Part shown: positions 10,896 through 62,302 of the stretch, one piece after another | How positions within the stretch are numbered: position 1 is the first letter of the stretch | Layout: every line of letters starts with the position of its first letter | DNA from: Candidatus Omnitrophota bacterium | Lineage (GTDB): Bacteria > Omnitrophota > Gorgyraeia > Gygaellales > Profunditerraquicolaceae | Direction: 5' to 3' | Assembly (NCBI GenBank): GCA_041309005.1 | Contig: JBFZAN010000053.1 | Coordinates: 34,252-98,251, forward strand | Length of the DNA: 64,000 nucleotides | Translations under genes and position numbers: made by a program | The notes under the pieces: generated by a model | What the model saw: the letters and a program-made list of their open reading frames with translations, nothing else | What the model was told of the DNA's origin: nothing | Databases searched by the model: none

Positions 10896-10922
10896 CCGCG
10901 CGTAGCATATTCTAATGTACCG

Positions 10923-11453: not shown

Positions 11454-11483
11454 TCCGCGTACTTTTATTACAGAGTGTAACGC

Positions 11484-13223: not shown

Positions 13224-13226
13224 CAC

Positions 13227-14525: not shown

Positions 14526-14528
14526 CCG

Positions 14529-16924: not shown

Positions 16925-16940
16925 TTATAAGGAGAATGCC

Positions 16941-47687: not shown

Positions 47688-47715
47688 TTGACTTTTTTTA
47701 AAAATATACTAAAAT
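47688..47715 (+). promoter_or_regulatory. sigma70-like promoter of pilus locus (-35 TTGACT, 16-nt spacer, -10 TAAAAT)
   Basis: TTGACT 47688-47693, TAAAAT 47710-47715, AGGAGA RBS 7 nt before ATG 47753. Same architecture as the promoter at 62209. Confidence 0.5.
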
Positions 47716-47752
47716 ATGACAAATAGTATTAAACTATATCAGGAGATTTTAG

Positions 47753-48406
47753 ATGGGCATTTTCCGGGCAGCGGAAGTGGCTGGCAAATTGAGGATTTCT
47801 AAGCAAACGCTTTTTCGTTACGAAAAAAAAGGCATTTTTCCTAAACCGAGAAGGAACAGGATCAACCGTTGGCGCGAATATAACGAGGAAGAAATACAAA
47901 AAATGAAACAGATCATGGGCAGGGGTTTTACACTGCTTGAATTGATCATAGTAGTGGTGATAATGGGGATCCTGGCTGCCTTGGCCATCCCGCGCTTTGA
48001 AAGTTTCTATACCGTAAAATTGAAGGGAGCGGTGAACAATGTGGTTTCCGACATCCGCTACGTGCAGCAACTGGCGGCCTCCAGCCATGATACCTACAAG
48101 ATGACTTTTTACGTAACTCCCGCCAACAGGTACGAAGTCCAGAAATCAGACAATAGCTACGCGAAGAACCCTTTTGGCCACGGGGATTTTATAATCAATT
48201 TCACAAATGATCCCCAGTATAAAGGGATCGGTATCGATAGCGCGAATATTAACGGAATGAATATCCTGAGCTTCGATTGGAACGGCACGCCCCGGGATGC
48301 AAACGGGAACACCTTGACAGCCGAGGGGCAGGTAAATCTTTCTTATCAAAATGATTCTTTTTCCGTGAGGGTTACGCCTAATACCGGCTGGGTGAGGGTG
48401 CAGTGA
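47753..48406 (+). CDS. type IV pilin/pseudopilin with in-frame N-terminal MerR-like HTH extension (HTH–prepilin fusion ORF)
   Basis: Residues ~8-50 AEVAGKLRISKQTLFRYEKKGIFPKPRRNRINRWREYNEEEI resemble the MerR/excisionase-type HTH. These are followed in the same frame, with no stop, by a textbook class-III signal MKQIMGRG|FTLLELIIVVVIMGILAALAIP (Gly-1, Phe+1, Glu+5) and a pilin-like beta-rich C-terminus. The reading frame was verified codon by codon. Confidence 0.65.
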   Translation: MGIFRAAEVAGKLRISKQTLFRYEKKGIFPKPRRNRINRWREYNEEEIQKMKQIMGRGFTLLELIIVVVIMGILAALAIPRFESFYTVKLKGAVNNVVSDIRYVQQLAASSHDTYKMTFYVTPANRYEVQKSDNSYAKNPFGHGDFIINFTNDPQYKGIGIDSANINGMNILSFDWNGTPRDANGNTLTAEGQVNLSYQNDSFSVRVTPNTGWVRVQ

Positions 48407-48924
48407 AGAATAAAGGCATCAGCCTGATCGAAATGATCATCACGATCGTCATTCTGGGATTGACGATACCCGTTCTTTTGAATATGTGGTCGGACGTAGC
48501 GTTACGATCAGCCCGTTCGGAAGCGCTGGCAGACGCTCTTTTTTACGGACAGCAATTGATGGAGGAGATACAATCAAAGAAATTCGACCAGCATACCGCC
48601 GCGCCCTGGAGCGATACGCTCGGGCCGGATAACGCGGAGACCAGACTAGGCACAGGGAATGCGGGTTTTAATGACGTTGATGATTACAACGGATATTCCG
48701 ACAGTCCCGCGCCAGGCTACAGCCGCTGCGTGACCGTCGATTATGTCGCGCTCAGCGGTACCGCGTGGAACGGAACATGTTCGCCGAATACTCCGTCAGG
48801 CTGCACCCCTGCGTCGTGCACGGCAGGCAATGTGACCGATTACAAACGTATTACAGTCAGGGTGGATCGTAATGACTCCCTGGTAAAAGATATAGTTCTG
48901 GCGCTGGTGGTAAATCCATTTTAG
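48403..48924 (+). CDS. prepilin-type N-terminal cleavage/methylation domain protein (minor pilin/pseudopilin)
   Basis: MKNKG|ISLIEMIITIVILGLTIPVLL with Glu+5; Cys-rich C-terminal region; GTG start overlapping the upstream stop. Confidence 0.6.
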   Translation: MKNKGISLIEMIITIVILGLTIPVLLNMWSDVALRSARSEALADALFYGQQLMEEIQSKKFDQHTAAPWSDTLGPDNAETRLGTGNAGFNDVDDYNGYSDSPAPGYSRCVTVDYVALSGTAWNGTCSPNTPSGCTPASCTAGNVTDYKRITVRVDRNDSLVKDIVLALVVNPF

Positions 48925-48940
48925 AAGGAGGGCTGCGTCA

Positions 48941-49468
48941 TTGCAGGGAAAGCGCGCTCGCTTTAAAAAAGAAGGGGTAACCCTGATAGAGCTGGTGATA
49001 GTGATCGTTATCGTCGGCGTATTAACGGGGGTATCGGCCTTGTATGCCCGGGAGATCGTGGACCTGTGGCGTTTTATTAATTTTCGCAGCGAGATTGTTT
49101 CACAGGGCAGGGCCGCCCTGATGAGGATGGAGAGAGAGATCAGGCAGATCGCGGGTAAGGGGTCGGTATATGCGGCGGGCATTTCGCAATTGCGCTTCCA
49201 TGACATATACGGAAACGATATCCAGTATCAGTGGTTAAGCGACCCCGATCCTTCGATAAAGGGCGCTATCATGCGCAATAACGATATCCTGGTCAAGGGC
49301 GTCGAGAGCCTCGTGTTTAACTATTACGATCAAGATAATAATCCGATCGTTTCTCCTCCTGTCAGTCCGTCGGATACCACCATCAAAAGAATAAGCGTGA
49401 CATTCATAATGCTTGCAGGCGACCAGGAAAAAACGTTGAGCGCGCAGACCTTCCCCCGGAACCTTTGA
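48941..49468 (+). CDS. prepilin-type N-terminal cleavage/methylation domain protein (minor pilin/pseudopilin)
   Basis: ...KKEG|VTLIELVIVIVIVGVLTGV with Glu+5; TTG start 10 nt after the AAGGAGG RBS. Confidence 0.55.
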   Translation: MQGKRARFKKEGVTLIELVIVIVIVGVLTGVSALYAREIVDLWRFINFRSEIVSQGRAALMRMEREIRQIAGKGSVYAAGISQLRFHDIYGNDIQYQWLSDPDPSIKGAIMRNNDILVKGVESLVFNYYDQDNNPIVSPPVSPSDTTIKRISVTFIMLAGDQEKTLSAQTFPRNL

Positions 49469-49504
49469 ACCGGGGCGTTACTTTGATAAAAAAAGGGGGC
49501 CACG

Positions 49505-49777
49505 ATGGCTAAAAAATTTATGTTTGCTTCACTCATCGCGGTATGCCTGTTGCTGGGGATGAGTATGACCCTGAGGGCGCAGAGGCCCCAGGAACAGCCG
49601 GCGGGTACGGATGTCGCAGCGCAGCTTGCCCAGATACGGGCGCAGCTTGAGCAGGTCTCAAATAATGCGGACGCCGCGAACAGGGAAATAGTAAAAAAGC
49701 TGAACGATGTCTTGAGCGATCACGACAAGATATTTAAAGAGCTTGACATTATCAAGGTGAGAGCCAGCCTGAGGTAA
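49505..49777 (+). CDS. small secreted coiled-coil protein
   Basis: Signal peptide FMFASLIAVCLLLGMSMTLRA then helical AAQLAQIRAQLEQV...; 90 aa, sits in the pilus operon. Confidence 0.4.
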   Translation: MAKKFMFASLIAVCLLLGMSMTLRAQRPQEQPAGTDVAAQLAQIRAQLEQVSNNADAANREIVKKLNDVLSDHDKIFKELDIIKVRASLR

Positions 49778-49778
49778 C

Positions 49779-51569
49779 ATGCGTGATGATAAAACGCCGG
49801 AGCGTAAGGCGGTAAGCCGCGGTTCCGGCCCGAATGCAAAAAGCGGCCTGTCACAGTTCCTTTCACTTCTGGGGAGGTTTTTTACCTCTTCGCAGGACGT
49901 GCTGGGGATAGATATCGGCTACAGCTACATGAAAATACTGCAATTGCAGAAGACGGCCAAGGGCTACGTGATCGCGCATTGCATTACGCGCGCCATACCC
50001 CAGAACGTAAAAGAGGACCCCGCAGGGCGCAGGAAATTCATCCAGGGCGCGGTGAAGCAGTTTATTTCCGATTCCAAGATAAAAACCAACCTCGCGCGCC
50101 TCGCTATCTCGGGGAAAGGGGTCTTTATTTTTTCGATAACCGCCCCCGCCGCTATCAGTAAAAAAGACTTAAGGGGGCTGGTGGGCATTGAGTTGAAAAA
50201 ACGCCTCCCCTTTCAATTAGAGATCAGCAATATGTCGTATGATTTTTTTACCACAGGCCAGCAACAGGACGAGAAGGGCGTAAGCCTTCAGGTGACCTGC
50301 GTCTCAGTGGACCGACTGACCATAGACGAACAAATCGGCCTTTTAAAGGACATGGATATAAGTCCGGTTGCCATCAACGCCGTTTCAGACGCGCTGGGCA
50401 ATCTCCTGCCTTATTGCCTGAACGCTCCCGGCGACAGGACCGTAACGCTTTTGGATATAGGCGCGAATACTTCCTTGCTGAATTTTTATAAAGGCAAAAA
50501 CCTGGTGTTTTCGCGCGAAATACCCGTTGGCGGAGAGCATATAACCCGCGCCATGGCCAAGCCCATCCCCGCTTCCTCAGGTACGGTCGAACTTGGCGTC
50601 GAGGATGCCGAGAAGATCAAGCGTAACGTCGGCATCCCCCTGGAAGACGAATCGCGGCAGGATTTCTTGACGGATTACGGCGTATTCCAGGGAGAACAGA
50701 TCTCGACCGCCTTAAGGCCGACGCTGGAGAGGTTGATCCTGGAGATCACCAGGACCGTAAGCTATTATACTAAAACGTTCAAGGCAGAAGATACGGAAGC
50801 ATTGTATATCACCGGCGGCAGCTCGCGCCTGCGGAATATCGATAAGTTCCTGTTATATAACCTCGAGAGGCTCACAAAAGTAGAACACCTTCCCGTATTG
50901 AGCGCGGTGAAGGGCTGGTCAGAGACCGGCGTCTTCAGGCAGGAGCTGGTCATGGAACAGGCTGCGCCTCATCTGGCGGTAGCCTTCGGCCTTTGCCTGG
51001 GAAGCGGAGGGAGAGTAAACCTTTTACCGGTGAAGGAAAAGGTAGAGCAAAAAACAGTTTTCCTGATGCTCCTTTTTAAGGTATTCTTCCCGGTGATCCT
51101 GGTGCTGGTGCTGTCGTGGTACGTCATAAGTATCGTGAACAACCATAAATATAGAAATTTAATCAGGAAGACGAACTCCGATATAAGCCGCCTGGAACCG
51201 ACTGCCTCAAAGGTGAAGGAGTATCTGAATATAAAGACAAAATTTGAAGAGAGAAAAGAGTCGCTGGAAAAAGCGGAAGGCAAACAGCCTCTCTGGTGGG
51301 GCATATTCAAGGAACTAAGCAATATAACACCCCCGGGCGTAGTGCTTACGCAGATAACCGCCGTAGCCGGGACCGAGCCGAAACAGCTGCGCCTGGCGGG
51401 CAGGATCGTCTCCCGGTATACGGTAGTGGATGTGGAGCTTTCGCAATACCTTATCGCGCTGGAAGAATCGCCTTATTTCAGGGATGTCGTATTGGTCTCC
51501 AGCGAAAAAGACCTGTATTCTCCGATGCCGGCTGCGAAATTCGAGATCACCTGCACGCTGGTGTATTGA
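49779..51569 (+). CDS. pilM: type IV pilus assembly protein PilM fused to PilN
   Basis: N-terminal actin-like ATPase fold (VLGIDIGYSYMKILQL..., ...TLLDIGANTS..., ...YITGGSSRL) = PilM; then a TM helix VFLMLLFKVFFPVILVLVLSWYVISIV and a periplasmic PilN-like domain, all in one 596-aa ORF. Confidence 0.75.
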   Translation: MRDDKTPERKAVSRGSGPNAKSGLSQFLSLLGRFFTSSQDVLGIDIGYSYMKILQLQKTAKGYVIAHCITRAIPQNVKEDPAGRRKFIQGAVKQFISDSKIKTNLARLAISGKGVFIFSITAPAAISKKDLRGLVGIELKKRLPFQLEISNMSYDFFTTGQQQDEKGVSLQVTCVSVDRLTIDEQIGLLKDMDISPVAINAVSDALGNLLPYCLNAPGDRTVTLLDIGANTSLLNFYKGKNLVFSREIPVGGEHITRAMAKPIPASSGTVELGVEDAEKIKRNVGIPLEDESRQDFLTDYGVFQGEQISTALRPTLERLILEITRTVSYYTKTFKAEDTEALYITGGSSRLRNIDKFLLYNLERLTKVEHLPVLSAVKGWSETGVFRQELVMEQAAPHLAVAFGLCLGSGGRVNLLPVKEKVEQKTVFLMLLFKVFFPVILVLVLSWYVISIVNNHKYRNLIRKTNSDISRLEPTASKVKEYLNIKTKFEERKESLEKAEGKQPLWWGIFKELSNITPPGVVLTQITAVAGTEPKQLRLAGRIVSRYTVVDVELSQYLIALEESPYFRDVVLVSSEKDLYSPMPAAKFEITCTLVY

Positions 51570-51577
51570 GGTGGGAA

Positions 51578-52198
51578 ATGATAACGCTTAAGAAAACAAG
51601 CAAATTTATGCAGGCCGGGCTCCTGTGCCTTGTCTTTTTTTTCGTTCTCGTCGCGCTGTATTTTGCCTGGGGGAGATCTCTTTTTAAGGCCGAGAAGAAG
51701 TTGAAAACGGAATTCAGCCTCAAGCAATCAGAGCTCAAAGAGCAGGAGGTGTTGATCAGGACCGTTCCTGACCCTAAGAAGGCCATCGAAGAGATCGAAA
51801 AAAAGGCGGATGAATTCAAAGATATCGAGGTCGGGAAACGGCAGGTCCCCCGGCTCATCCATCTGCTGGGCAGCGCGGCCGCGGAACACAACATAAATAT
51901 TGTTTCCATAAGGCCGCGGGAGGACATAAAAGTCGCGAATGAGAATCTTCCGTCGGGAGTGACCAAGGTGTATGTCGAGATGGTGCTTGGCTGTCCTTAC
52001 CAGGTGCTGGGCGGGTATTTAGCCGACCTGGGCAAGCTGCCGGTTACCTTTATCATTGAGTCGGTCTCCATAGCGCCCAGGGAAGAAACGGCAACGCCTG
52101 CTCCCGACGCGAAGAAGGCGGCAGTAAGCAAGGGAGAAAGGCCGCAAGAGCTCTTGATAACCCTGCTTTTAAGCACCTATATGATCTATGAAATATAA
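51578..52198 (+). CDS. pilO: type IV pilus assembly protein PilO-like
   Basis: Single N-terminal TM LLCLVFFFVLVALYFAW, coiled coil, periplasmic domain; operon position after PilMN. Start at ATG 51578 after the GAGGTGGG RBS. Confidence 0.55.
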   Translation: MITLKKTSKFMQAGLLCLVFFFVLVALYFAWGRSLFKAEKKLKTEFSLKQSELKEQEVLIRTVPDPKKAIEEIEKKADEFKDIEVGKRQVPRLIHLLGSAAAEHNINIVSIRPREDIKVANENLPSGVTKVYVEMVLGCPYQVLGGYLADLGKLPVTFIIESVSIAPREETATPAPDAKKAAVSKGERPQELLITLLLSTYMIYEI

Positions 52199-52215
52199 GG
52201 TACGGCCGTACGCAT

Positions 52216-52665
52216 ATGGATAAACAGCAAAAACAACTTATTATAATCGGGGTCCTGGTGGTAGTGTTGGCGCTGGCGCTCGTGAGTAATTTAAAAAAGA
52301 AGCCCAAGAAAAAAGCAGCCCCCTTGCCCAAGCCGGATGCGGCGTCTTTGGCCAAATCCGCGCCTGTGGTCAGCGCCGCGCCTGCCGCGGATGCGGGCGT
52401 GCTGGGCGAGCAGATCGAGCGCACGAAGCTTACATGGGGACGAGATCCCTTTTCCGTTAATACGGACAAAACGTTCCAGTTAAGCGAGCTTAAGCTCCAG
52501 GGCATCTCCTTCGGCACAGATAAAAAAGGTTTCGCATTTATTAATGGCGAGATTGTGCAAAAGGGTGATAAAATAGGAGATTACGAGGTCATAGATATCG
52601 AAAAAGAAAGAGTGCTTCTCAAGAGAGGCAGCCAGGATTTTTACCTGGTTTTCCCTGGAGAATAG
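52216..52665 (+). CDS. pilP: PilP-like pilus assembly protein
   Basis: N-terminal TM, Pro/Ala-rich linker, C-terminal beta domain LKLQGISFGTDKKGFAFINGEIVQKGDKIGDYEVIDIEKERVLLKRG typical of PilP/GspC HR domains; immediately precedes the secretin. Confidence 0.5.
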   Translation: MDKQQKQLIIIGVLVVVLALALVSNLKKKPKKKAAPLPKPDAASLAKSAPVVSAAPAADAGVLGEQIERTKLTWGRDPFSVNTDKTFQLSELKLQGISFGTDKKGFAFINGEIVQKGDKIGDYEVIDIEKERVLLKRGSQDFYLVFPGE

Positions 52666-52693
52666 CGGGACAAATAGGCAAAGAGGTCGAAAA

Positions 52694-54094
52694 ATGAAGA
52701 GAAAATTGGCGTGTGTCTGTATTATGGCTTTGATGTGTCTTAGCGCCTGCGTTCATCCGCCCCTGTGCGCGCAGGAGAAGGAAAACCTGGTGATCGAATC
52801 CCTGGAGTTCAGGGAGGTCGATATCAAAGATGTCTTGCGGCAGCTCGCCAAGCAATACAACCTCAACATCGTATTTTCTGAGGCGGTGAAAGGGTTGGTC
52901 ACCGTGCAGCTTAACAACGTGAGCATCGAGCAAGCGCTGGATTCGATCATCACCGTGAACGGCTTCGCGTATACCAAGAAAGAGAACGTCTATAAAGTGA
53001 CCACGCAGGAAGAGGCGCATAAGCAAGGCAAACAGACAAAGCTCTTTAAATTAAATAACGCCGATTCGGCTAAACTGAAGACCACCTTAGAAAAGTCTTT
53101 GACCCCGGAAGGCTCTATTGAGGCGGACAGCCGTTCCAATTCCATAATCATCACGGATTCTCCCGCGGTCATAAGCAAGATAGAGGCGATGATCCCCGAT
53201 CTGGATGAACTTACGCCCCAGGTATTGATCGAGGCGCGCCTGATTGAGGCGTCGCTCAACGACAATGACAAGCTGGGCTTTGATTGGTCTACGACGGTCG
53301 CGGCGTCCGGCTCTTCGCGCCCCATCACGTTTCCTTTTAGCGGCAAGGGCAATTATAACCCCGGGACGTTTACTCCCCTGAACACGACAGCCGGTTTCAC
53401 GGGGCCGTACGCCTTTCCTTCCGCGGCCGCGGAAAATTTCACCTTTGGCACGCTTGATTTTACTTCCCTGAAGGCTGTGCTCGACATGTTAAAGACGCGC
53501 AAAAAGACCAAGCTCGTCGCCAATCCCAGGATAGTCACCCTTAATAACCAGAACGCCTCCATTAATGTCGGTAAAGTCCTGGCGTTGCCTACCTACGAGA
53601 GGAACGAAACAACCGGAAAGCTGGAGATCACCGGATGGACTAATTATAATGTAGGCGTCAATTTAAGCGTCACTCCGCAGGTAAGCCCCGACGGCCATAT
53701 CAAGCTGAAATTAAAGCCCGAGGTAAGCAGCCTCATCGGGTACGCTTCTCAAAGGGACGGCGTCAATGAGGGCCCTATCACTTCGTCCCGGACGGCGCAA
53801 ACCGAAGTGCAGATGAGAGACGGCCAAACGGTCGTGATCGGAGGGCTGGTCAAGGAAGAATCATTCACCATCACAAAGAAGATACCCGTGCTGGGGGATA
53901 TCCCCATCCTCGGGGCTTTGTTTACGCGAAAGGAAGTCGGCTCGACGGAGAACCCTACCGAAAAAACCGACTTGCTAATCTTTGTGACAGCCCGTATAAT
54001 TAAAGAAAGCGACGCGCCACTGCTCGCAAACGACAGCGCTCTGGTGACTTCCGGGAGGAGGCCGTTTAAACTGGACATGAGAAAGATCAAATGA
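52694..54094 (+). CDS. pilQ: type IV pilus secretin PilQ
   Basis: Signal peptide; N0/N1-type domains (VIESLEFREVDIKDVLRQLAKQYNLNIVF...); secretin core QTVVIGGLVKEE...KIPVLGDIPILGALFT. Confidence 0.85.
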   Translation: MKRKLACVCIMALMCLSACVHPPLCAQEKENLVIESLEFREVDIKDVLRQLAKQYNLNIVFSEAVKGLVTVQLNNVSIEQALDSIITVNGFAYTKKENVYKVTTQEEAHKQGKQTKLFKLNNADSAKLKTTLEKSLTPEGSIEADSRSNSIIITDSPAVISKIEAMIPDLDELTPQVLIEARLIEASLNDNDKLGFDWSTTVAASGSSRPITFPFSGKGNYNPGTFTPLNTTAGFTGPYAFPSAAAENFTFGTLDFTSLKAVLDMLKTRKKTKLVANPRIVTLNNQNASINVGKVLALPTYERNETTGKLEITGWTNYNVGVNLSVTPQVSPDGHIKLKLKPEVSSLIGYASQRDGVNEGPITSSRTAQTEVQMRDGQTVVIGGLVKEESFTITKKIPVLGDIPILGALFTRKEVGSTENPTEKTDLLIFVTARIIKESDAPLLANDSALVTSGRRPFKLDMRKIK

Positions 54095-55449
54095 CGGATA
54101 AGAAATTCTTTGTTTTGCTGGTGGCGACGATAGGGATATTCCTTGCGCTTTTTTACTCCGCGAGGAGCGCCAGGCGTACCCAGACCGCCCAAACGCCGCC
54201 GGCGGGCAGCTCGCTGCCCCAGGCCACGATACCGATGCTGGAATCAAGGATGCAGCAGTTAAAGGACGCAGTCTCAACCTACGGCCAGCTAAACGTTTCG
54301 CTGCATAAGGCCTTCAACGAAGAAAAGGAAAAGTCGCTTGAGGTACGGGAAAAAGCGATGAGCCTGCAGGAAGAATTAAAAAATGTCACCGCGCAAAAAG
54401 ACGCCCTCTCAAAAGAATTGTCCGACACCAGGACGAAGCTGGAAATGACCCAACCTTTAAAGCAGAAGCTTATCCAGATGGAGACTGCGTTATCGGGATT
54501 GAACTTCAGCCAGGATATGCAGGGTGAGGTGGTGGCCCGGCTGGACACGCTGATCAAGGAGCTGGATTCCATCGACCAGCAGATGCCGTATCTGCTCAAT
54601 GAAAACATGGCCTTTAAAGTGCAGGTGCAGAACCTTTCCGATCTTCTTGGCCGCAAAGAGCAGGAACTGGCTGTACTGAAACAGCAGGCAGAAGACGCAA
54701 AAGTCAAAAATCAAACGCTCAGCAAGAACGTGGACGCGCTCTTAGAGCAGCTTATGGCGGCCAGCAAAGGGAGGCAGGCGCTGGAGCAGAAGGCCGCTGA
54801 TCTGGAAAAGGTCGCTTCGAATCTAAAAAAAGCCGGCTATTTCCTGAAGGAAAAATTAGAAAAGACGCGCAAAGAGCTCGGGGAAGTCAAGGAAAGAGAG
54901 GCAAGGGCCGCTCAGGAAAAACAGGAGGCTTTGGGCGGGCTGGGCGCAAGGCAGGAGCACCTGGCAGCGCTTGAAACCAGAAACCAGGCATTGGAACAGG
55001 AACTGGCGTCGCTCAAGGAAAAACTGGAGACGCTCAGTAGGGAATACGCGGGTTTCAAGGACGAACACGCAACCGCGCAGCTGGCGATCAGGCAGACTGA
55101 AGCGGAATTAAAGAAAAACAGGGATGAAATATCCTATTTTAAGGATAAGCTTGCCGACGCGGATACGAGGTTCATCGAACTTCAGTCAAAATATAACGAG
55201 GTGAAAAAAGAATCCGCTGTATTGCGGGAACAGTACGTGAATGTACAGCTGGAAAGGGAGAGGTTAAGGGATGAATTACAGCGGGCGCGGATGAATTTGA
55301 GCGAACTGCAGAATAAATTCCAGAAAATAGGCACTATGTTTATGTCGCAACCGCCGCCGCAGATGGCTTCGCCCGAAGAAGGGGCCTCTTCTCGCAGGAA
55401 GGTCGACGTGGAGCTTCTTCCCAAGACGAAAGAGGGATCTGAACAATGA
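54091..55449 (+). CDS. membrane-anchored long coiled-coil protein
   Basis: N-terminal TM FFVLLVATIGIFLALF followed by ~400 aa of heptad-rich sequence (many EL/QL/KEL repeats). Confidence 0.45.
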   Translation: MTDKKFFVLLVATIGIFLALFYSARSARRTQTAQTPPAGSSLPQATIPMLESRMQQLKDAVSTYGQLNVSLHKAFNEEKEKSLEVREKAMSLQEELKNVTAQKDALSKELSDTRTKLEMTQPLKQKLIQMETALSGLNFSQDMQGEVVARLDTLIKELDSIDQQMPYLLNENMAFKVQVQNLSDLLGRKEQELAVLKQQAEDAKVKNQTLSKNVDALLEQLMAASKGRQALEQKAADLEKVASNLKKAGYFLKEKLEKTRKELGEVKEREARAAQEKQEALGGLGARQEHLAALETRNQALEQELASLKEKLETLSREYAGFKDEHATAQLAIRQTEAELKKNRDEISYFKDKLADADTRFIELQSKYNEVKKESAVLREQYVNVQLERERLRDELQRARMNLSELQNKFQKIGTMFMSQPPPQMASPEEGASSRRKVDVELLPKTKEGSEQ

Positions 55450-56183
55450 GCCGCGATGCGCTTATATTGTGCGCTGCCGTGTGCGTGTCCGTTTCTGCCG
55501 CAATACGGGCCTATGGCGCGCCGGCCGAGGCTGGCCTGCCACCTGGCCGCATGATGCCGGCGCCCGCTGCCGACGCGGCGATAGCCGTTACGCAGGATGC
55601 CGGGTTGACCAGGCAGGAAAAGATAGAAAAGGCGCGCCAGCTTTATTCTCACGGGGAACAGCTTCTGGAGGACGGGAATTTTGTCGCCGCAGACGACGCG
55701 CTTAAAAGAGCGCAACGGTTACTCGAGGAATCCATACCCCGGCAAGCGCCGCTGCGTTTAAACGAAGCGCCTGCGTCCGATGATGACGGGGTGGCCGTGG
55801 AAGAACGGGTATGGCCCGCATCCAAGGCGTGGGAACTGTCTCAAGAAGGCGCTTCAGAAGAAGCGGTCGGCTATTACCTGAAGGCGATCGATCTTGAACC
55901 CGGGCGCGCCGACCTGTATTATAATCTGGGGGTAGAGTATTTAAAGACCGGTCAATATGCGTTTGCGGTAAAGGCCTTTAAAGAGTCGCTGCGCCTTGAC
56001 CCGAAGGACGCGTTCTCCTGTTATAATTTGGGGGTGCTCTACGAAGATTATCTTAAGGAGAAAAAACAGGCGCTGGAATATTACCGGAAGTTCCTGAAGC
56101 TTGCGCCCAACGCGGAGGAAGCGCCCGAAGTAAAGCGCTGGATACAGGAACTGATCAACTATTATAGCGAGGATGAACGATAA
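55446..56183 (+). CDS. TPR-repeat protein with signal peptide (PilF/Tgl-like pilotin candidate)
   Basis: Signal peptide LILCAAVCVSVSAA; TPR motifs (AVGYYLKAIDLEPGRADLYYNLGVEYLKTGQYAFAVKAFKESLRLDPKDAFSCYNLGVLYE...). Confidence 0.55.
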   Translation: MSRDALILCAAVCVSVSAAIRAYGAPAEAGLPPGRMMPAPAADAAIAVTQDAGLTRQEKIEKARQLYSHGEQLLEDGNFVAADDALKRAQRLLEESIPRQAPLRLNEAPASDDDGVAVEERVWPASKAWELSQEGASEEAVGYYLKAIDLEPGRADLYYNLGVEYLKTGQYAFAVKAFKESLRLDPKDAFSCYNLGVLYEDYLKEKKQALEYYRKFLKLAPNAEEAPEVKRWIQELINYYSEDER

Positions 56184-57876
56184 AGACCTGGAAGGTTTAT
56201 TATTATCTACGCATCTCTTAGACGAGACAGAGCTGCATAAGGCTCTGGACGAGATGAGGAAATTAAAGAGGCCGCTGGAAAAAATAGTGGTCGATATGCG
56301 CCTTGTTGACCGCGCGAGCCTCTACGAAGCGATAGCCAAGCACCAGGGGTTCAGTTACGTCGCGCTGGATTCCGTCCAGTATGACGAGACATTGACCAGG
56401 GTTATGCCCGAGGGTCTGGCGCGCCAGACGCAATCCGTTCCCTTCAGGACCGCTAACGATACTCTTCACGTCGCGATGGTTGAGCCCACCGATCTCTACG
56501 CAATCGATCAGATCCAGATGCATACCGGTACGCCCATCGAGGTATATCTTTCCAGCCCCCAGGAAATAGAAGAGGCGCAAAGCAGGCTGTATGCGGGCAA
56601 GAGCGCTCCCAGCGCGAAGAAGCTCATGGAGGGGATCACGAAAGTCTCTTCCGGCGTCGCCAAAGAGGCGGCCACCGAAGGGACTTCGATCATCAAGCTC
56701 GTAGATTTGGTTATATCCCAGGCAGTGCACGACAGGGCCTCGGACATCCATATTGAGCCGGAACAGGATATGCTGCGCATCAGGTTCAGGATCGACGGCA
56801 TCCTGCACGAGATACCCTCTCCTCCAAAAGAATGGGAGGCGGCGATTATTTCCCGGGTCAAGGTTTTATCGAATATGGACATCGCCGAGAGCAGGGTCCC
56901 TCAGGACGGCCACTTTCAGGCAAAGGTCGATGACAAGATAGTGGATTTCCGCGTCGCCACCATACCCACCATATACGGGGAGAACCTGGTCATGAGGCTC
57001 CTGGATACCGCCTCGGTAATGATCGGGCTGGAAAAGCTGGGGTTTGCAACGGAGTTTGAATTAAAGGCCTATGAGAAGCTGATCAATATGCCTTATGGGA
57101 TAATCCTTTCGACCGGCCCCACGGGAAGCGGCAAGACCACGACGCTTTATTCCGCGTTAATGAGGATAAATACCGTCGACAAACACATCATTACTATCGA
57201 GGACCCGGTGGAGTACCGCCTGGGGCTGATACGGCAGATCCAGGTGAACCCCAAGGCGGGGATTACCTTCGTCAACGGCCTGAGGGCGATTTTACGCCAG
57301 GATCCCGACGTGATCATGGTGGGGGAGATCAGGGATCTGGATACGGCGGTCATCGCGGTGCAGGCAGCGCTCACCGGCCATCTGGTGTTTTCCACGCTGC
57401 ACACAAACGACGCAGCGTCTGCGGTAACGCGCCTGGTAAACATGGGGGTTGAGCCGTTTTTGATCTCCGCCTGTCTGATCGGCGTGCTCGCGCAGCGCTT
57501 AGTAAGAAAGATATGCGAGCATTGCAAGGAGCCTTACGAACCGCCGGCGCTTATTATGCGAAGATGGGGTTTGGATAAAAAGAAAGGGCTCCTGCTCTAC
57601 CATGGCCGGGGCTGCGACCACTGTAAGGGTACCGGCTTCCGGGGGCGCGCCGGCATATTCGAGCTGTTGGTTGTCGACGATGAGATCCGGGAGATGATAA
57701 TTCAGGGAGCTTCCGCCATGGCGCTGCGCAAAAAAGCCCAAGTCAAAGGCATGAAGCTTTTAAGCGATGACGGATTAAGCAAAGTTTTGTCCGGCGTGAC
57801 TACCATCGAAGAGGTCTCCAGGGTCTGCGCCGAGCAGTCAGACGCTGTCCCGGATGATACGGAAGAGAAAGAATAA
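56173..57876 (+). CDS. pilB: type IV pilus assembly ATPase PilB (GspE family)
   Basis: N-terminal T2SSE_N domain, Walker A GPTGSGKTTT, Asp box, Walker B ...DPDVIMVGEIRD, His box, tetracysteine CEHC...CDHC. Confidence 0.9.
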   Translation: MNDKDLEGLLLSTHLLDETELHKALDEMRKLKRPLEKIVVDMRLVDRASLYEAIAKHQGFSYVALDSVQYDETLTRVMPEGLARQTQSVPFRTANDTLHVAMVEPTDLYAIDQIQMHTGTPIEVYLSSPQEIEEAQSRLYAGKSAPSAKKLMEGITKVSSGVAKEAATEGTSIIKLVDLVISQAVHDRASDIHIEPEQDMLRIRFRIDGILHEIPSPPKEWEAAIISRVKVLSNMDIAESRVPQDGHFQAKVDDKIVDFRVATIPTIYGENLVMRLLDTASVMIGLEKLGFATEFELKAYEKLINMPYGIILSTGPTGSGKTTTLYSALMRINTVDKHIITIEDPVEYRLGLIRQIQVNPKAGITFVNGLRAILRQDPDVIMVGEIRDLDTAVIAVQAALTGHLVFSTLHTNDAASAVTRLVNMGVEPFLISACLIGVLAQRLVRKICEHCKEPYEPPALIMRRWGLDKKKGLLLYHGRGCDHCKGTGFRGRAGIFELLVVDDEIREMIIQGASAMALRKKAQVKGMKLLSDDGLSKVLSGVTTIEEVSRVCAEQSDAVPDDTEEKE

Positions 57877-57879
57877 AAA

Positions 57880-59109
57880 ATGCCTACGTACGTATATAAA
57901 GCGGTAGACCAATTGGGTAAGCTTGTGAAGGGCGAGATGGACGCGGTAAGCGAAGTGGAGTTGACCACGCAGCTAGCCAAAATCGGGTATCTGCCCGTAA
58001 GCATAAGCTTCAAGACCAAAGGGGGAAAATCAAAAGAAGCCGCAGAAAGCTTTCTGAAGAGCGGGTATAAGGTTGATACCCAGGCGCTGGTGGTATTCAC
58101 CCGTCAGTTCGCGACGATCATAAAAGCCGCAGTCCCCATACTGGAAGGCCTTGGGGTATTGGCTGAGCAGGCGGAGGACCCGGCGCTCAAAGAGGTGCTG
58201 CGTAAAGTCATCCATGATGTTGAGGGCGGCGCGAGCCTCTCCCAGGCGATGGCAAAACACCCGGGCGTGTTTTCCAAGCTGTATATCAATACGGTGATCG
58301 CGGGGGAAAGCGCCGGAGTGTTGGACAAGGTGCTGCTAAGGCTCGCCAAGATGCTGGAAAATGATCAGGAGACGCGGTCCAATATCCAGTCTGCGTTACG
58401 CTACCCGATCATGGTGGTCATTGCGATGCTGGTGGCGGTTGTCGTATTGTCGGTATTTGTTATCCCCCAGTTTGCCAAGATCTATACGAGCGCCAAAGTG
58501 GCGTTGCCGCTGCCTACGCAGGTAATGATATTCATAAGCAATATTCTCATCCATCACTGGTTCATCCTCGTGCCTGTTGTGATAGGCGTAATTTTTGCCT
58601 TCCAGTGGTACATTAATACAACCGCGGGCAGGTGGCTCTGGGACGGCCTTAAATTCAAAGTGCCGATCGTCAGCAAGCTGTACACCAAAATGACGATGTT
58701 GCGCTTTGCCTCGATGCTCAGCGTCCTTTATCAGGCGGGGCTTCCCGTGCTCAGCACGCTGGATATCGTGGGGATGACTATCGGCAACGTGGTCCTTTCC
58801 AGGGAAGTGGACGTGATAAAACGCGATGTCGCCGACGGTAAAGGTATTTCAGGCGCGGTGTTGAACAGCCAGTTTTTCCCCAGGCTCGTCGGGTATATGA
58901 TCGCGATAGGAGAAAAAAGCGGCCAGCTTCCGATGATGCTGGATTCCCTGTGCGAATACTTCGATCTGGAAGTGAAGACCGTCACCAAGAACCTGACTAC
59001 CATGATCGAACCGGTGATGACCGCCGTATTAGGCACGGTCGTGGTCGGGATGGCGTTATCGATCTTTCTGCCGTTGTGGAACATGATACAGGTAATCAAG
59101 GGGGGATAA
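57880..59109 (+). CDS. pilC: type IV pilus platform protein PilC (GspF family)
   Basis: Two GspF repeats (..GESAGVLDKVLLRLAKMLE.. and ..GEKSGQLPMMLDSLCEYF..), three TM helices. Confidence 0.9.
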   Translation: MPTYVYKAVDQLGKLVKGEMDAVSEVELTTQLAKIGYLPVSISFKTKGGKSKEAAESFLKSGYKVDTQALVVFTRQFATIIKAAVPILEGLGVLAEQAEDPALKEVLRKVIHDVEGGASLSQAMAKHPGVFSKLYINTVIAGESAGVLDKVLLRLAKMLENDQETRSNIQSALRYPIMVVIAMLVAVVVLSVFVIPQFAKIYTSAKVALPLPTQVMIFISNILIHHWFILVPVVIGVIFAFQWYINTTAGRWLWDGLKFKVPIVSKLYTKMTMLRFASMLSVLYQAGLPVLSTLDIVGMTIGNVVLSREVDVIKRDVADGKGISGAVLNSQFFPRLVGYMIAIGEKSGQLPMMLDSLCEYFDLEVKTVTKNLTTMIEPVMTAVLGTVVVGMALSIFLPLWNMIQVIKGG

Positions 59110-59122
59110 CCAAAAAAAGGAT

Positions 59123-59980
59123 ATGGCGGGAATGGTGATTTCTATTGCGATAGTACTGGTCGTTTCTGCTGCGTTCGCTTTTTACGCGGTGGCGGTCGAC
59201 CGCCGCTGGAAGAAGAAAATAGAGGAAAAAACAAACCTGGTCAAGGAAGCCGAGGCGCAGATAGTGCATATGGAAAAAATGGCTTCCCTGGGCACGCTTG
59301 CCGCCGGGATCGCGCATGAAATAAACAACCCTTTAGGATTTTTGATCAGCAATCTCCAGAATCTCAAGGAATATATCCAGAAGCTGGAAGGAAAAATTTC
59401 TCTCGAAGAAAAAGAAAATCAGGTACTGCTCGATGATTTTAAGGCGATAGCCCAGGAGTCGCTCGATGGCGCGAAGCGCATAAAAAAGATCGTCTCGGAC
59501 CTGCGAACTTTTTCCCGCAGGAGCGAAACGCAGCATATCACTATCGACGTCAACCAGATCCTGGAAACCGTATTATCGATCGTCTGGAACGAGATAAAAT
59601 ATAAGGTCACGGTGGTAAAGGATTACCAGGCGAGCTCTACTACTTTGGGGGATCCGACCCAGCTGTCCCAGGTATTCCTGAACCTTGTCATCAACGCCAG
59701 CCAAGCTATCGCGGAGAAGGGCTCGATCAGCATCTCGACTTCGGAAGACGCGAACAATATTTACATCAAGATCGCCGACACCGGAAGCGGTATTGCGCCT
59801 GAAGTGCTGCCTAAGATATTCGACCCGTTCTTTTCCACAAAAAAAAGCACCGGGCTTGGCCTTTCGGTAACGTATAATATCGTTAAGCATCACGCAGGAG
59901 ATATACAGGTAGAAAGCAAAGTGGGCGCCGGCACGACCTTTACCGTTTGGCTGCCGAAAATAGCCAAACAAAACGAATAG
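59123..59980 (+). CDS. sensor histidine kinase (single TM, HisKA + HATPase_c)
   Basis: TM ISIAIVLVVSAAFAFYAVAV; H-box LAAGIAHEINNPL; N box LNLVINASQA; G boxes DTGSGI...GLGLSV. Confidence 0.8.
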   Translation: MAGMVISIAIVLVVSAAFAFYAVAVDRRWKKKIEEKTNLVKEAEAQIVHMEKMASLGTLAAGIAHEINNPLGFLISNLQNLKEYIQKLEGKISLEEKENQVLLDDFKAIAQESLDGAKRIKKIVSDLRTFSRRSETQHITIDVNQILETVLSIVWNEIKYKVTVVKDYQASSTTLGDPTQLSQVFLNLVINASQAIAEKGSISISTSEDANNIYIKIADTGSGIAPEVLPKIFDPFFSTKKSTGLGLSVTYNIVKHHAGDIQVESKVGAGTTFTVWLPKIAKQNE

Positions 59981-60017
59981 CGCACACAAAAGGTATCGAC
60001 AAGAGGAGGTGATCGGC

Positions 60018-60227
60018 ATGAGAAAGGTATACAATCTCGGCGACGATCTGTTTTTAGCGGTTGCATTTGTCTCGTTTATAGTGGGGGCAGTGTTGCGGCT
60101 CATGGGGATCTATGAGATAGCCTGGGGGATCACCAACCGCGCGCTGATCGTGAACGCCATCATATGCCTTTTATTCAGCATCGCGCTGAGCTTATATGAC
60201 CTGGCGCGCACCCAGGGCAAAGCGTAG
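60018..60227 (+). CDS. small membrane protein (2 TM, 69 aa)
   Basis: AAGAGGAGG RBS 8 nt before ATG 60018; two hydrophobic helices. Confidence 0.35.
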   Translation: MRKVYNLGDDLFLAVAFVSFIVGAVLRLMGIYEIAWGITNRALIVNAIICLLFSIALSLYDLARTQGKA

Positions 60228-60317
60228 CTTTTCACGGTATCTACGCGTGTGGTGTTATTGCCGCGAAACCAAAAACGCTTTAAAAATCGCTTTGAGGCGT
60301 TTTGATAAGGAGAAGGT

Positions 60318-60689
60318 ATGGCTTCCTACGACGAAAAAAGACAGTACCAGAGAGCGTATTTCAAAATAAAGGTGGAATGCAGGGGTAAGAGTTTCTGGCA
60401 GTACGTCGAGACCAGGGACATCTCCGCCGGAGGGATGTTCGTGGTTACGGATAAAGTAGAGCCAGCCAAAACGAAGATCGAAGTGATGTTCGAGTTCGAT
60501 GAGGGAGAGAAGAAGTTCATTTATGCGGAAGGCGTCGTCGCATGGAGCAGGGGCAAGCCCTTTAAGAACGAGGCCGGCGAAACCATACCGGCCGGAATGG
60601 GCATTATGTTTACCAAAATAACCCCTTCGGGAGGAAAGGCGTATATCGACCAATTGGTGAAGCAGACAGAGGAGAAGAAGAATGGCTAA
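60318..60689 (+). CDS. PilZ-domain protein
   Basis: RQYQRAYFK (RxxxR) and TRDISAGGMFV (DxSxGG) c-di-GMP-binding motifs; 123 aa. Confidence 0.7.
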   Translation: MASYDEKRQYQRAYFKIKVECRGKSFWQYVETRDISAGGMFVVTDKVEPAKTKIEVMFEFDEGEKKFIYAEGVVAWSRGKPFKNEAGETIPAGMGIMFTKITPSGGKAYIDQLVKQTEEKKNG

Positions 60690-61254
60690 GCATACTATTT
60701 TAATCGTTGATGATGAGCAGAATATCTTAAGCAGCCTCTCGAGAGTGTTACGCACCGAGGACAGGCAAGTCCATACCGCCGGCTGCGTCCAGGAAGGCAT
60801 CGAGAAGTTAAAGGCCTTAGGCGGCATAGACCTGGTGATCTCGGATAACCGGATGCCTGACGGAACGGGGGTCGATTTCCTGGTCAAGGTAAAGCAGTTG
60901 TATCCGGATACTATCCGGATACTTTTTACAGGGTACCCGGATCTTGACGCGGCCATCCAGGCGATCAATAAGGGGCAGGTCTACCGGTTTATCACCAAGC
61001 CCTGGGAAAATGAGGAGCTCAAGCTTATCGTGAGGCAATCGCTCGATTATTTCGACGTGCTCAGGGACAACCGCGTCCTGTTAAAGATCGCCCGCCAACA
61101 GGCGGAAATGCTGGAGACCATGCAAAAGAAATACCCCCAGGTTTCCCAGGAAGATATTAACAGGGGGGGGCTCTACATTATCGATGAGCAGCGGGTCTCG
61201 GAAACGCTTTCCGATTTTTTAAAGAAATATTACCCTCAGCAGATCAAAGAGTGA
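60682..61254 (+). CDS. response regulator receiver protein (REC + short C-terminal extension)
   Basis: ILIVDDEQNIL, phospho-acceptor region LVISDNRMPDGTG, ...ILFTGYPD..., KPW motif. Confidence 0.8.
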   Translation: MAKHTILIVDDEQNILSSLSRVLRTEDRQVHTAGCVQEGIEKLKALGGIDLVISDNRMPDGTGVDFLVKVKQLYPDTIRILFTGYPDLDAAIQAINKGQVYRFITKPWENEELKLIVRQSLDYFDVLRDNRVLLKIARQQAEMLETMQKKYPQVSQEDINRGGLYIIDEQRVSETLSDFLKKYYPQQIKE

Positions 61255-61279
61255 CCGCCTGTTAAAAAGGAGCCCGCCA

Positions 61280-62116
61280 GTGCAGGATTTTGAAGAAAAG
61301 CTTATCCAGGGCAAATGGCTTACCAGCCAGAATTATTCTATCGCGAAGAAAGAAGCCGGGAGGCTTGGCAGGTCGATCTGGTCTACCATGGTCAGGCTCG
61401 GTTTTCTTTCAGAAGAGGATATCTCTACCTTTTTTGCCGAAGAGAGCGGCATCCCCCACGCAAGGCTTTCCGATTATGAAATGGAGGAAGGAGTCGTGCG
61501 TCTCGTCAGCGAGGAGTTTTGCCGAAAGCACAGCGTGATCCCTGTTTTTAGAATCCAGGATACGTTATTCGTCGCCTTCAGTAATCCGCTTGATGCCTCT
61601 TGCATAGATAGCCTGGTTAAGATGACCGGCCTTGCTGTCGAACCTTTGATAACTTCAAAGCGCGCTATCTCTACCGCCCTGGATACCCATTACGGTCCTG
61701 ACGATAACGACTTCCTGATAGAGCAGTTCTTATTCAGGAAGAATCCGTTGCAGGGGATCCCCTTCAAAAGGGAAGCCGAGAGGATCAATTTAGAGATCCC
61801 GGTATCCCTTAAGGTAGTGGATAGCTCTGTCAGATTACATTACTCTTCGCCGATAGAGGGCTTTACGCGCAATATTTCGGTAAACGGGACGGCCCTGAGC
61901 CTTCAGGTGTTTTTGTTTCTGCCCAGGGATATCGCGGTTTCTCTTGAATTTAAGCCTACGCAGACTCTCTTTTCTTCAGGAGAAAGCATAGGCGCCAAGG
62001 GCCAGATCGTATATTGCCAGATGGAAAAAGGCCAGCGGTATTTGCTGGGTGTTCGATTTACTGATATAGCGAGTGAAAGCTTAAACACGCTTATTCGCCT
62101 GGCAAGAAGAAAATAA
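61280..62116 (+). CDS. T2SSE_N (GspE/MshE N-terminal-like) + PilZ two-domain protein
   Basis: N-terminal GspE_N-like fold (LGRSIWSTMVRLGFLSEEDISTFF...KHSVIPVFRIQDTLFVAFSNPLD...); C-terminal PilZ-like beta-barrel (REAERINLEIPVSLKVVD...RNISVNGTAL...). Confidence 0.6.
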   Translation: MQDFEEKLIQGKWLTSQNYSIAKKEAGRLGRSIWSTMVRLGFLSEEDISTFFAEESGIPHARLSDYEMEEGVVRLVSEEFCRKHSVIPVFRIQDTLFVAFSNPLDASCIDSLVKMTGLAVEPLITSKRAISTALDTHYGPDDNDFLIEQFLFRKNPLQGIPFKREAERINLEIPVSLKVVDSSVRLHYSSPIEGFTRNISVNGTALSLQVFLFLPRDIAVSLEFKPTQTLFSSGESIGAKGQIVYCQMEKGQRYLLGVRFTDIASESLNTLIRLARRK

Positions 62117-62208: not shown

Positions 62209-62237
62209 TTGACAATTTATATTTGATGACTTAAAAT
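62209..62237 (+). promoter_or_regulatory. sigma70-like promoter (-35 TTGACA, 17-nt spacer, -10 TAAAAT)
   Basis: TTGACA 62209-62214, TAAAAT 62232-62237; upstream of the stand-alone HTH gene; mirrors the promoter at 47688. Confidence 0.45.
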
Positions 62238-62302
62238 TATACCAAAGTATATCAAATATGGTCAGACTTGATCTAGGGAGAATAAGGGTTTCGTATAATT
62301 AA

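Follow-up and report, generated by a model that had tools for sequence, protein, structure and literature searches.

The control of type IV pili by cyclic di-GMP (c-di-GMP) via PilZ proteins is well known. In MshE of Vibrio cholerae and PilF of Thermus thermophilus the MshEN domain is located at the N-terminus of a PilB-type ATPase (PMC5013675, PMC11731258, PMC12002112), and the receptor consists of two 24-residue motifs with a 5-residue spacer between them, for which a relaxed search pattern has also been given (Wang et al., 2016, PMC5013675). The N-terminal domain of Xanthomonas citri PilB (ND0/ND1) is of the MshEN fold, has no c-di-GMP motifs and is bound by a PilZ protein; in this PilB-PilZ-FimX system the c-di-GMP signal reaches the motif-less N-terminus of PilB in trans via the bound PilZ, and a second conserved surface of the domain has been proposed to contact PilM (Llontop et al., 2021, PMC8389850). 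Type IVa pilus (T4aP) clusters with most of the T4aP components have been reported for nearly all classes of Omnitrophota and linked to host-cell attachment, and the main text of that study makes no mention of c-di-GMP or PilZ (Seymour et al., 2023, PMC10066038). Here we describe the type IV filament locus at 47753-62116 of a 64,000-nt stretch of DNA from a Candidatus Omnitrophota bacterium (contig JBFZAN010000053.1; the whole stretch is called the window below, and all coordinates are those of the window unless they are given with another locus). The Omnitrophota are uncultured, ultra-small and probably host-dependent, so the regulation of their attachment organelle is of interest, and a search of the literature for the regulation of secretin or pilus systems in this phylum gave nothing relevant.

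The locus consists of 17 genes, all on the forward strand, which were called from the open reading frame listing and its translations and then scanned against Pfam and NCBIfam. Every gene named in the original prediction was found at its place and on the forward strand, and the gene identities and their conserved order are established. The claim of a single-strand, tightly packed type IV filament locus with a kinase/regulator pair and PilZ proteins was borne out as well: the intergenic distances are -11 to +36 nt with the sole exception of 90 nt 5' of the PilZ gene, and six gene pairs overlap. The promoter that had been proposed at 47688 is indeed the best sigma-70-like site upstream of the operon: P1 (47688-47715, forward strand; TTGACT, 16 nt, TAAAAT) sits within the 208-nt gap downstream of folC and, with 10 of 12 matches, is among the best in the scanned region. 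As an explanation of the whole we accept, with modest confidence, that 47688-62116 is one conserved operon which builds a filament machine intermediate between a T4aP and a type II secretion system (T2SS), takes its c-di-GMP input via PilZ domains and is autoregulated by a helix-turn-helix (HTH) domain carried by the first pilin.

The conservation of the locus is illustrated by its relatives. The structural order pilin 1-pilin 2-pilin 3-small secreted-PilMN-PilO-PilP-secretin-coiled-coil-TPR-PilB is kept at 40-72% protein identity in the related loci L004-L006, L009, L010, L014 and L045 (55-62% for the PilM-PilN fusion, 62-72% for the secretin), and the whole tail pilB-pilC-kinase-small membrane-PilZ-regulator-MshEN_PilZ is kept in L043 (GCA_028719045.1), the MshEN-PilZ protein of which is 52% identical to that of the window. 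A kinase gene lies 3' of pilC in both L043 and L046, and both have a gene for 68-69 aa at the position of the window's 72-aa two-span protein. Because the order recurs in independent Omnitrophota genomes, the gene arrangement is not a product of chance. All of the nearest species representatives carry the label Candidatus Omnitrophota, bar a few Planctomycetales bins that are probably mislabelled, and identical proteins are encoded in the metagenome-assembled genomes GCA_041309085.1, GCA_041309045.1 and GCA_041309165.1. Overall, the locus is an ordinary representative of the class already reported for Omnitrophota, being of the same phylum and the same kind of cluster as the T4aP clusters of that report (PMC10066038).

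The genes of 47753-62116 are most likely carried by one transcript from 47688. Two observations weigh against this: promoter-like sites are found at 53622 and 53972, inside pilQ, and the 90-nt gap (60228-60317) harbors an A-tract/stem/U-tract hairpin (106-nt fold of -31.9 kcal/mol, z = -2.0), which could attenuate read-through into the PilZ, response regulator and MshEN_PilZ genes. One would argue from the same two features that the structural genes and the PilZ-regulator-MshEN_PilZ tail are two units that merely adjoin and share no transcript. We regard this as improbable: L043 keeps the order of the tail after pilC with a corresponding gap of just 28 nt, which rules out the hairpin as a conserved terminator, the terminator-like matches are not enriched over shuffled sequences (32 vs 23.1 +/- 5.7), and all the remaining gaps are at most 36 nt, with the overlaps already mentioned.

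The next matter is what kind of machine this operon builds. A type IVa set is present, namely PilM and PilN (fused), PilO and PilP (both weak), the secretin PilQ, PilB and PilC. The PilM-PilN fusion (49779-51569, 596 aa; PilM_2 at 43-407, E 5.8e-31, and PilN at 509-594, 4e-08) has an actin-like cytoplasmic domain, a membrane span and a periplasmic PilN domain. The short secretin (52694-54094, 466 aa; Secretin 2.2e-44) contains N0/STN and one Secretin_N domain, the PilB/GspE-type extension ATPase (56173-57876, 567 aa) matches T2SSE at 3e-137 and MshEN at 2.1e-19, and the PilC/GspF platform protein (57880-59109, 409 aa) matches Pfam T2SSF. Most of the gene names of the original prediction could be kept, but those of PilO and PilP are weak. 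The PilO/GspM-like bitopic protein (51578-52198, 206 aa, with its start placed according to the gene call) reaches only E 0.0049 with Pfam PilO, below the cut-off, and 4.4e-05 with NCBIfam GspM; the PilP/GspC-like small periplasmic protein (52216-52665, 149 aa) matches T2SSB, CdsD_C and GspC (1.7e-04), all below the cut-offs. The two genes fall below the curated cut-offs, yet they stand at the expected, conserved positions, the PilP-like gene being kept 5' of the secretin gene in the relatives.

Other parts of a type IVa pilus were not found in the window. As had been stated from the beginning, the window contains no PilD or PilT: a tblastn search with PilB found no second T2SSE-type ATPase in the window, the GxGD[VI]K motif of the prepilin peptidase does not occur in it, and the 10-kb flanks of the related loci hold no peptidase gene. 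The window has three prepilin genes, all within the locus, and none of them is evidently a major pilin. Prepilin 2 (48403-48924, 173 aa, leader VKNKG|ISLIEM; N_methyl) is weakly GspI/ComGE-like and adjoins pilin 1 in the relatives, prepilin 3 (48941-49468, 175 aa, leader ..KKEG|VTLIEL; N_methyl, NCBIfam) is conserved in the relatives, and pilin 1 is discussed below; all three have Gly at -1, a hydrophobic residue at +1 and Glu at +5, followed by a hydrophobic helix of about 20 residues. Because no major pilin and no PilT were identified, the assignment of a filament type is tentative.

Therefore the locus has also to be considered as a T2SS, in which a short periplasmic pseudopilus pushes proteins through the secretin and no surface pilus is made. 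From the T2SS set, GspD, E and F are clear in the window, the H-like (by fold), I-like, M-like and C-like members are weak, and an L-like architecture is present. The T2SS reading is favored by the GspH/EpsH-FimU fold of pilin 1, by the weak XpsI likeness of pilin 2, by the missing PilT and obvious major pilin, and by the short secretin, which has no AMIN domains. The PilM-PilN fusion and GspL are arranged alike, with a PilM-like cytoplasmic domain, one span, a PilN-like periplasmic domain and a GspM-like neighbor; the fusion, however, matches the families PilM_2 and PilN rather than the GspL families. Its neighbors are closer to GspM and GspC than to PilO and PilP, although the GspM/GspC likeness of these two small periplasmic partners is as weak as their PilO/PilP likeness. 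On NCBIfam scores PilB is as near to GspE (599 bits, cut-off 630) as to PilB (592 bits, cut-off 676), both under the cut-off. A G-like major pseudopilin was likewise not found in the window, and FimU-like minor pilins are standard in type IVa pili too. Moreover, the Omnitrophota clusters have been classed as type IVa pili, and the expression of such pili in V. archaeovorus has been cited (Seymour et al., 2023, PMC10066038). We thus consider a plain T2SS possible but rather unlikely, and keep to the intermediate machine.

In the relatives (L004, L005, L006, L009, L010, L014, L045) pilin 3 and the small secreted protein are separated by one more gene, which in L004 (11769-13274) encodes a 501-aa K-like/PilX-like (PilX/GspK-like) protein and in L045 a 351-aa DUF7305 protein; this gene is absent from the window, where pilin 3 and the secreted-protein gene are 36 nt apart. 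The secreted protein itself (49505-49777, 90 aa), which has a signal peptide and a short helical stretch and matches no family, has homologues at the equivalent position in L004-6, L010 and L014. The membrane-anchored long coiled-coil protein (54091-55449, 452 aa) gives only coiled-coil-type matches, and its gene, conserved in position, overlaps both the secretin and the TPR reading frames. The TPR protein (55446-56183, 245 aa; Pfam TPR), with an N-terminal hydrophobic signal and a conserved position, is possibly a pilotin or an assembly factor.

As to the entry of c-di-GMP into the operon, the original prediction had counted three potential receptor modules: PilB's N-terminal domain, a stand-alone PilZ protein (60318-60689, 123 aa; Pfam PilZ) and an MshEN-PilZ protein (61280-62116, 278 aa; MshEN 1e-19, PilZ 2.9e-11; below, the 61280 protein). 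The part concerning the PilZ domains was supported by their motifs. The stand-alone PilZ has RQYQR and DISAGG and the fused PilZ has REAER and NISVNG, in agreement with the canonical RxxxR and [D/N]xSxxG, Pfam PilZ is above the cut-off for both window proteins, and both motifs are present in all 16 of the 16 members of the MshEN-PilZ family. The part concerning the MshEN domains was not supported, since the binding residues are lost in both of them, a loss that the original prediction had itself named as grounds for its refutation. The strict motif is RLGxx(L/V/I)(L/V/I)xxG(L/V/I)(L/V/I)xxxxLxxxLxxQ, twice; we scored the 22 defined positions of the relaxed form, [RKPN]hGxxhhxx[GAS]hhxxxxhxxxhxx[QNKRYWST] in two copies, taking the reference sequences of V. 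cholerae MshE and T. thermophilus PilF from PDB alignments and setting the register of the 61280 protein by its ungapped alignment to the window PilB. The binders V. cholerae MshE and T. thermophilus PilF GSPII-B score 22/22 and 20/22, and GSPII-A of PilF, a documented non-binder of c-di-GMP (PMC12002112), scores 19/22. The window PilB reaches 15/22, the 61280 protein 14/22 and the 16 family members 12-17/22. Motif I of PilB reads D-L-E...H...M and motif II P-L-E...R...H, so that Arg/Gly/Gly/Gln are substituted by D/E/H/M and P/E/R/H; in the 61280 protein they are substituted by D/E/K/A and S/W/-/E. Thus, of the Arg/Gly/Gly/Gln positions of the two domains, the only ones that survive are a Pro, which the pattern tolerates, and a single Gly.

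The fold itself is preserved. Besides Pfam MshEN, both domains give PDB sequence matches to the N-terminal domains of PilF, PilB and MshE, and residues 1-143 of the 61280 protein are modeled by AlphaFold2 (AF2) as four helices followed by an alpha/beta part, with a predicted local distance difference test (pLDDT) score of mostly 86-95. The window proteins keep the two 24-residue helix-turn-helix-like units and the 5-residue linker of MshE and PilF, and differ from them in that the binding residues (R-L-G ... G ... Q, twice) are replaced; in this state of substitution they resemble the non-binding GSPII-A and the PilB proteins of Xanthomonas and Pseudomonas. One could still suppose that direct binding of c-di-GMP takes place in the MshEN domains of both PilB and the 61280 protein in the manner of V. 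cholerae MshE, which together with PilZ would restore three receptors. Pfam MshEN is well above the cut-off in both proteins, the hydrophobic skeleton of both 24-residue motifs is retained, and PilB gives a sub-threshold match to the NCBIfam c-di-GMP_motif (27 bits, cut-off 38; the 61280 protein has no match). Also, GSPII-C of T. thermophilus deviates from the consensus at two positions by hand count yet binds, and binding of c-di-GMP is sometimes retained by MshEN domains with departures from the motif, which weighs against our reading. However, Pfam MshEN covers residues 60-143, which make up the C-terminal sub-domain and lie outside the 53-residue binding region, both window scores fall under that of the non-binder GSPII-A, and the substitutions of Arg, Gly, Gly and Gln are conserved family-wide, as exemplified by the Trp that is invariant at position 3 (a Gly position) of motif II across the MshEN-PilZ family. 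Direct binding by the MshEN domains is therefore very improbable in our estimation. Both MshEN domains are shown by sequence to lack the published c-di-GMP motif, and because the PilZ domains are canonical, two predicted receptors remain: the c-di-GMP receptors of the operon are probably the two PilZ domains and not three modules.

The signal would have to travel from these PilZ domains to the motor. No enzyme that makes or degrades c-di-GMP is encoded in the locus. Its tail has a two-component pair: a membrane-anchored histidine kinase (59123-59980, 285 aa; HisKA and HATPase_c) without an extracytoplasmic sensor domain and a response regulator (60682-61254, 190 aa; Response_reg) made of a receiver (REC) and about 70 aa without an assigned domain. 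The two-component signatures can be read from the sequences, as the H-box AHEINNPL of the kinase and DD...D...MP of the receiver; the pairing of the two proteins is suggested by the adjacency of their genes only. The receiver and linker of the regulator match NF053512 (response regulator c-di-GMP phosphodiesterase, NosR family) over positions 1-144 of 422 (E 8.6e-52), so the protein is the receiver and linker of a REC-HD-GYP-like regulator without the HD-GYP domain, and the 190-aa form is also encoded in L043 and L046. Between the kinase and the stand-alone PilZ lies the gene of the small two-span membrane protein (60009-60227, 72 aa), which has no family match.

We suggest that the two PilZ domains sense c-di-GMP and relay the signal to the machine through protein contacts, and that the kinase and regulator add a phosphorylation input. 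The stand-alone PilZ would dock on PilB, and the MshEN-PilZ protein would compete or bridge at the docking site of PilB, PilM or PilC in a c-di-GMP-dependent manner. Such a scheme differs from Xanthomonas in two respects. The Xanthomonas PilZ does not bind c-di-GMP, the receptor there being FimX with its degenerate EAL domain, whereas the PilZ domains of the window are canonical and there is no FimX; and one PilZ of the window is covalently fused to a second domain that resembles the N-terminus of PilB. No description of an MshEN-PilZ fusion was found in the literature. The fusion may be taken as natural evidence for a contact between the N-terminus of PilB and PilZ, an interaction that has been seen structurally only in Xanthomonas, and it points to a simple route of two parts by which c-di-GMP could reach the docking site of the ATPase. 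The AF2 model of the MshEN-PilZ protein has two well-folded domains and a disordered linker (pLDDT below 50), which holds the RxxxR. Intramolecular docking of PilZ on MshEN was examined in this model, which gives no confident mutual orientation (predicted template modeling score, pTM, 0.49), and this speaks against our scheme: because AF2 gives no confident domain contact, the role of an adaptor or competitor is something we can only infer. For the docking proposal as such the model is neutral, as it neither helps nor harms it.

The most unusual component of the operon is its first gene, pilin 1 (47753-48406, 217 aa; MerR_1 2.7e-08, N_methyl 3.9e-06), which encodes a fusion of an HTH and a prepilin; the MerR_1 HTH (residues 5-54) had been overlooked in the original prediction. 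Residues 1-58 (47753-47926) form a MerR/BldC-like winged HTH, then comes the cleavage motif GRG|FTLLE and a FimU/GspH-like minor pilin, and the HTH is joined in frame exactly at the G58|F59 cleavage site. The AF2 model of the protein has a pLDDT of 91; in Foldseek the pilin part finds the minor pilins FimU and EpsH, and the HTH part finds BldC, RacA, the N-terminus of CarH and excisionases (RdfS) with template modeling (TM) scores of 0.65-0.74 on the target. Because it has no coiled-coil dimerisation helix and no effector-binding domain but runs straight into the pilin helix, the HTH belongs with the BldC-like single-domain subgroup. It shares with BldC of Streptomyces (PMC5859096), RacA, the CarH N-terminus and RdfS the MerR-type winged HTH of about 55-65 residues in a single domain, and unlike BldC it is made as part of a type IV prepilin, whose N-terminal leader it forms. 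This leader is 58 residues long and folded, in contrast to the short, unstructured, charged leader of about 5-30 residues of which pilins 2 and 3 have ordinary examples. Literature on prepilin leaders bearing an HTH or MerR domain gave nothing relevant.

The fusion is not confined to the window. A search of 5.8 billion proteins gave about 40 clusters of it at 44-63% identity with an alike full-length architecture, apparently all from Omnitrophota, along with a few pilin-only relatives, and among 1.84 billion cluster representatives only four matches span the junction. An assembly or frameshift artefact is ruled out, as the frame and the junction are the same in the approximately 40 independent clusters from several data sources. 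In the alignment of the homologues the junction always reads [K/R/G]-x-G|[F/I/M]-[T/S]-h-h-E (h, hydrophobic). Its G-1 and E+5 are conserved, and in pilin 1 the conserved residues are G58|F59 and E63. The mean pairwise identity is 65% in the HTH leader vs 46% in the globular part of the pilin. Free-standing relatives of the HTH are many; they are 61-82 aa long and typically end with ..ILGR, the exact point of the pilin fusion. Apparent fusions in Scalindua and Thermodesulfobacteriota were rejected: the tblastn alignments began inside the HTH, but these pilins have long leaders without an HTH. One homologue, P0093 (211 aa), has a leader of about 56 residues before the prepilin motif in which the HTH is decayed (..ISKGVLLYYKKWVISYF..); a long leader evidently persists there after the loss of the DNA-binding signature. 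A display of the HTH on the filament for DNA uptake, on the model of FimT and other DNA-binding minor pilins, is also ruled out: because the domain lies N-terminal of the cleavage site and the membrane helix, it is cytoplasmic and removed from the mature pilin.

A conserved DNA element accompanies the fusion. Directly 3' of the -10 box of P1 (TAAAAT, 47710-47715), at 47715-47745 of the forward strand, there are three phased TAT..CA repeats spaced 9-11 nt (TATGACA at 47715, TAGTATTA at 47724 and TATATCA at 47735) and a 26-nt core, CAAATAGTATTAAACTATATCAGGAG, at 47720-47745, which is unique in the window (0 expected). The approximately 30 nt from the -10 box to the start codon are near-identical in relatives with only 44-63% protein identity. 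A 26-nt pattern, CAAATAKTATTAARNYATAYCAGGAG, was derived from them; it occurs without a mismatch in 9 of 9 HTH-pilin loci and nowhere in 38 other loci. Three further HTH-pilin loci outside the derivation set have it with 0, 1 and 1 mismatches, 7-8 nt 5' of the start codon. Six homologous loci in which the first pilin has no HTH give best matches with 9-12 mismatches, which is background, so the element is found in 12/12 loci with the HTH fusion vs 0/6 homologous loci without it. This co-occurrence makes the element a candidate operator, the TAT..CA repeats of which may be recognized by the HTH. BldC binds direct repeats as head-to-tail multimers (PMC5859096), and the candidate site of the pilin 1 HTH, being made of phased direct repeats, would suit the same mode of binding. 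Against an operator it has to be said that the element and the ribosome-binding site overlap, and that the element could exert its effect on the level of RNA. An Rfam scan of the whole window at gathering thresholds for riboswitches or other known RNAs in the leader regions returned three tRNAs only.

Three other lineages carry a gene for a ComFB-CheR fusion in divergent orientation to the HTH-pilin gene (L045 8781-9872 and L048 1-862, both on the reverse strand, and the P0016 contig); folC occupies the counterpart position in the window. ComFB is a recently described family of cyclic dinucleotide (c-di-NMP) receptors.

A second copy of the HTH stands immediately downstream of the operon. A free-standing paralogue of 63 aa (62303-62494, forward strand; MerR_1 3.3e-14; ending ..EIIRGSIE) is 70% identical to the pilin 1 leader over 53 aa, and Pfam MerR_1 scores above its cut-off in both. 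It is preceded by promoter P2 (62209-62237; TTGACA, 17 nt, TAAAAT; 11 of 12 matches), which together with phased repeats occupies 62209-62264 of the forward strand; the repeats directly 3' of P2 are TATACCA at 62238, TATATCA at 62248 and TATGGTCA at 62257, and a similar arrangement is found in L043. P1 and P2, which precede the two HTH genes, are the strongest promoter-like sites of the scanned region. The gene at 62303 opens a second secretin/ATPase system, which is seen complete in L043 (11037-20321) and L046 (10838-16779). This system comprises a GspC-like protein (in the window a second PilP/GspC-like protein of 151 aa, 62487-62942, forward strand, in the next unit outside the locus) and a DUF8575 protein that runs off the window end, followed in the relatives by an STN protein, a secretin, a T2SSE ATPase and a PilW-like pilin. 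Unlike the window PilB, the second-system ATPase of L043 has an intact MshEN c-di-GMP motif (22/22).

These observations suggest a model in which transcription is coupled to pilin processing. Prepilin leaders face the cytoplasm, and from this we infer that cleavage by the prepilin peptidase would release the HTH: the peptidase would cut between G58 and F59 on the cytoplasmic side of the membrane, and the freed HTH would bind to the phased TAT..CA repeats that begin where the P1 -10 box ends, regulating its own operon, as well as the similar repeats at the promoter of the second secretin system. Feedback of a related kind is known from PilS-PilR of Pseudomonas aeruginosa, which senses the membrane pilin pool by contact of the kinase with pilin within the membrane. 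The window model resembles it in that unassembled membrane pilin would feed back on the transcription of pilin genes, and differs from it in that one transcription-factor domain would be freed per processed pilin. We put forward the most specific form of the model as a speculation that is rather doubtful at present: each matured pilin would free one BldC-like repressor or activator that sets filament transcription at both promoters, and the MshEN-PilZ protein would be a c-di-GMP-switched decoy for PilB docking.

The release step has its weak points. No precedent was found for a folded prepilin leader of 58 residues, and a folded domain beside the cleavage site might hinder the peptidase. Met is present at -8 (M51) in the window and most of the homologues, including L004-L008 and L045, and a start at M51 would give a normal prepilin with a short leader, so that the fused form may not be the sole product. 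One would argue, then, that the HTH is no releasable leader at all, but either an uncleaved regulator that stays tethered or sequestered, or a reading frame that simply continues into the pilin gene, the functional pilin being made separately from the -8 Met with a normal 8-residue leader. The database entry P0041 is indeed called from the -8 Met, and P0093 keeps its long leader with a decayed HTH. ToxR and CadC are established examples of transcription factors tethered to the membrane and would be precedents for an uncleaved form. However, 5 of 19 fused homologues have Leu or Phe at -8, and in several homologues -8 and -4 are Leu, Phe or Ile, which rules out an internal start as the universal origin of pilin 1; P0036, P0038 and P0039 lack a Met in the stretch that links the HTH to the cleavage site, so their pilin can be made only as a fusion. 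G-1 and E+5 are kept throughout, so the site should remain a substrate of the peptidase, and the end of the free-standing paralogue coincides exactly with the cleavage position. We therefore think it less probable, though by no means negligible, that the HTH is not released, and prefer the release by the prepilin peptidase with the putative autoregulation that would follow from it. If this is true, it would be a new coupling of gene expression to the assembly of a surface machine; the HTH would be a proteolysis-gated transcription factor of a new type, and the prepilin peptidase would have a new role. The HTH-leader prepilin with its co-occurring promoter element would be a notable finding should the release model hold.

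Outside of the operon, the 47 kb upstream of it encode housekeeping functions. A 649-aa protein at 30273-32222 has an N-terminal PilZ-like region (RRYLR ... NIGKGG; Pfam PilZ 20.6 bits, cut-off 22.5) followed by a membrane span, a coiled coil and a large C-terminal domain without a family assignment, and may be a further c-di-GMP effector. About 30 kb upstream of the locus there is a V/A-type ATPase operon (10284-17399), the E-like, A, B, D, I and K subunits of which were read from the translations. Unusual F-type ATPases have been described beside the pilus clusters of Omnitrophota (Seymour et al., PMC10066038); the ATPase of the window differs from these in being V-type and in not adjoining the pilus genes.

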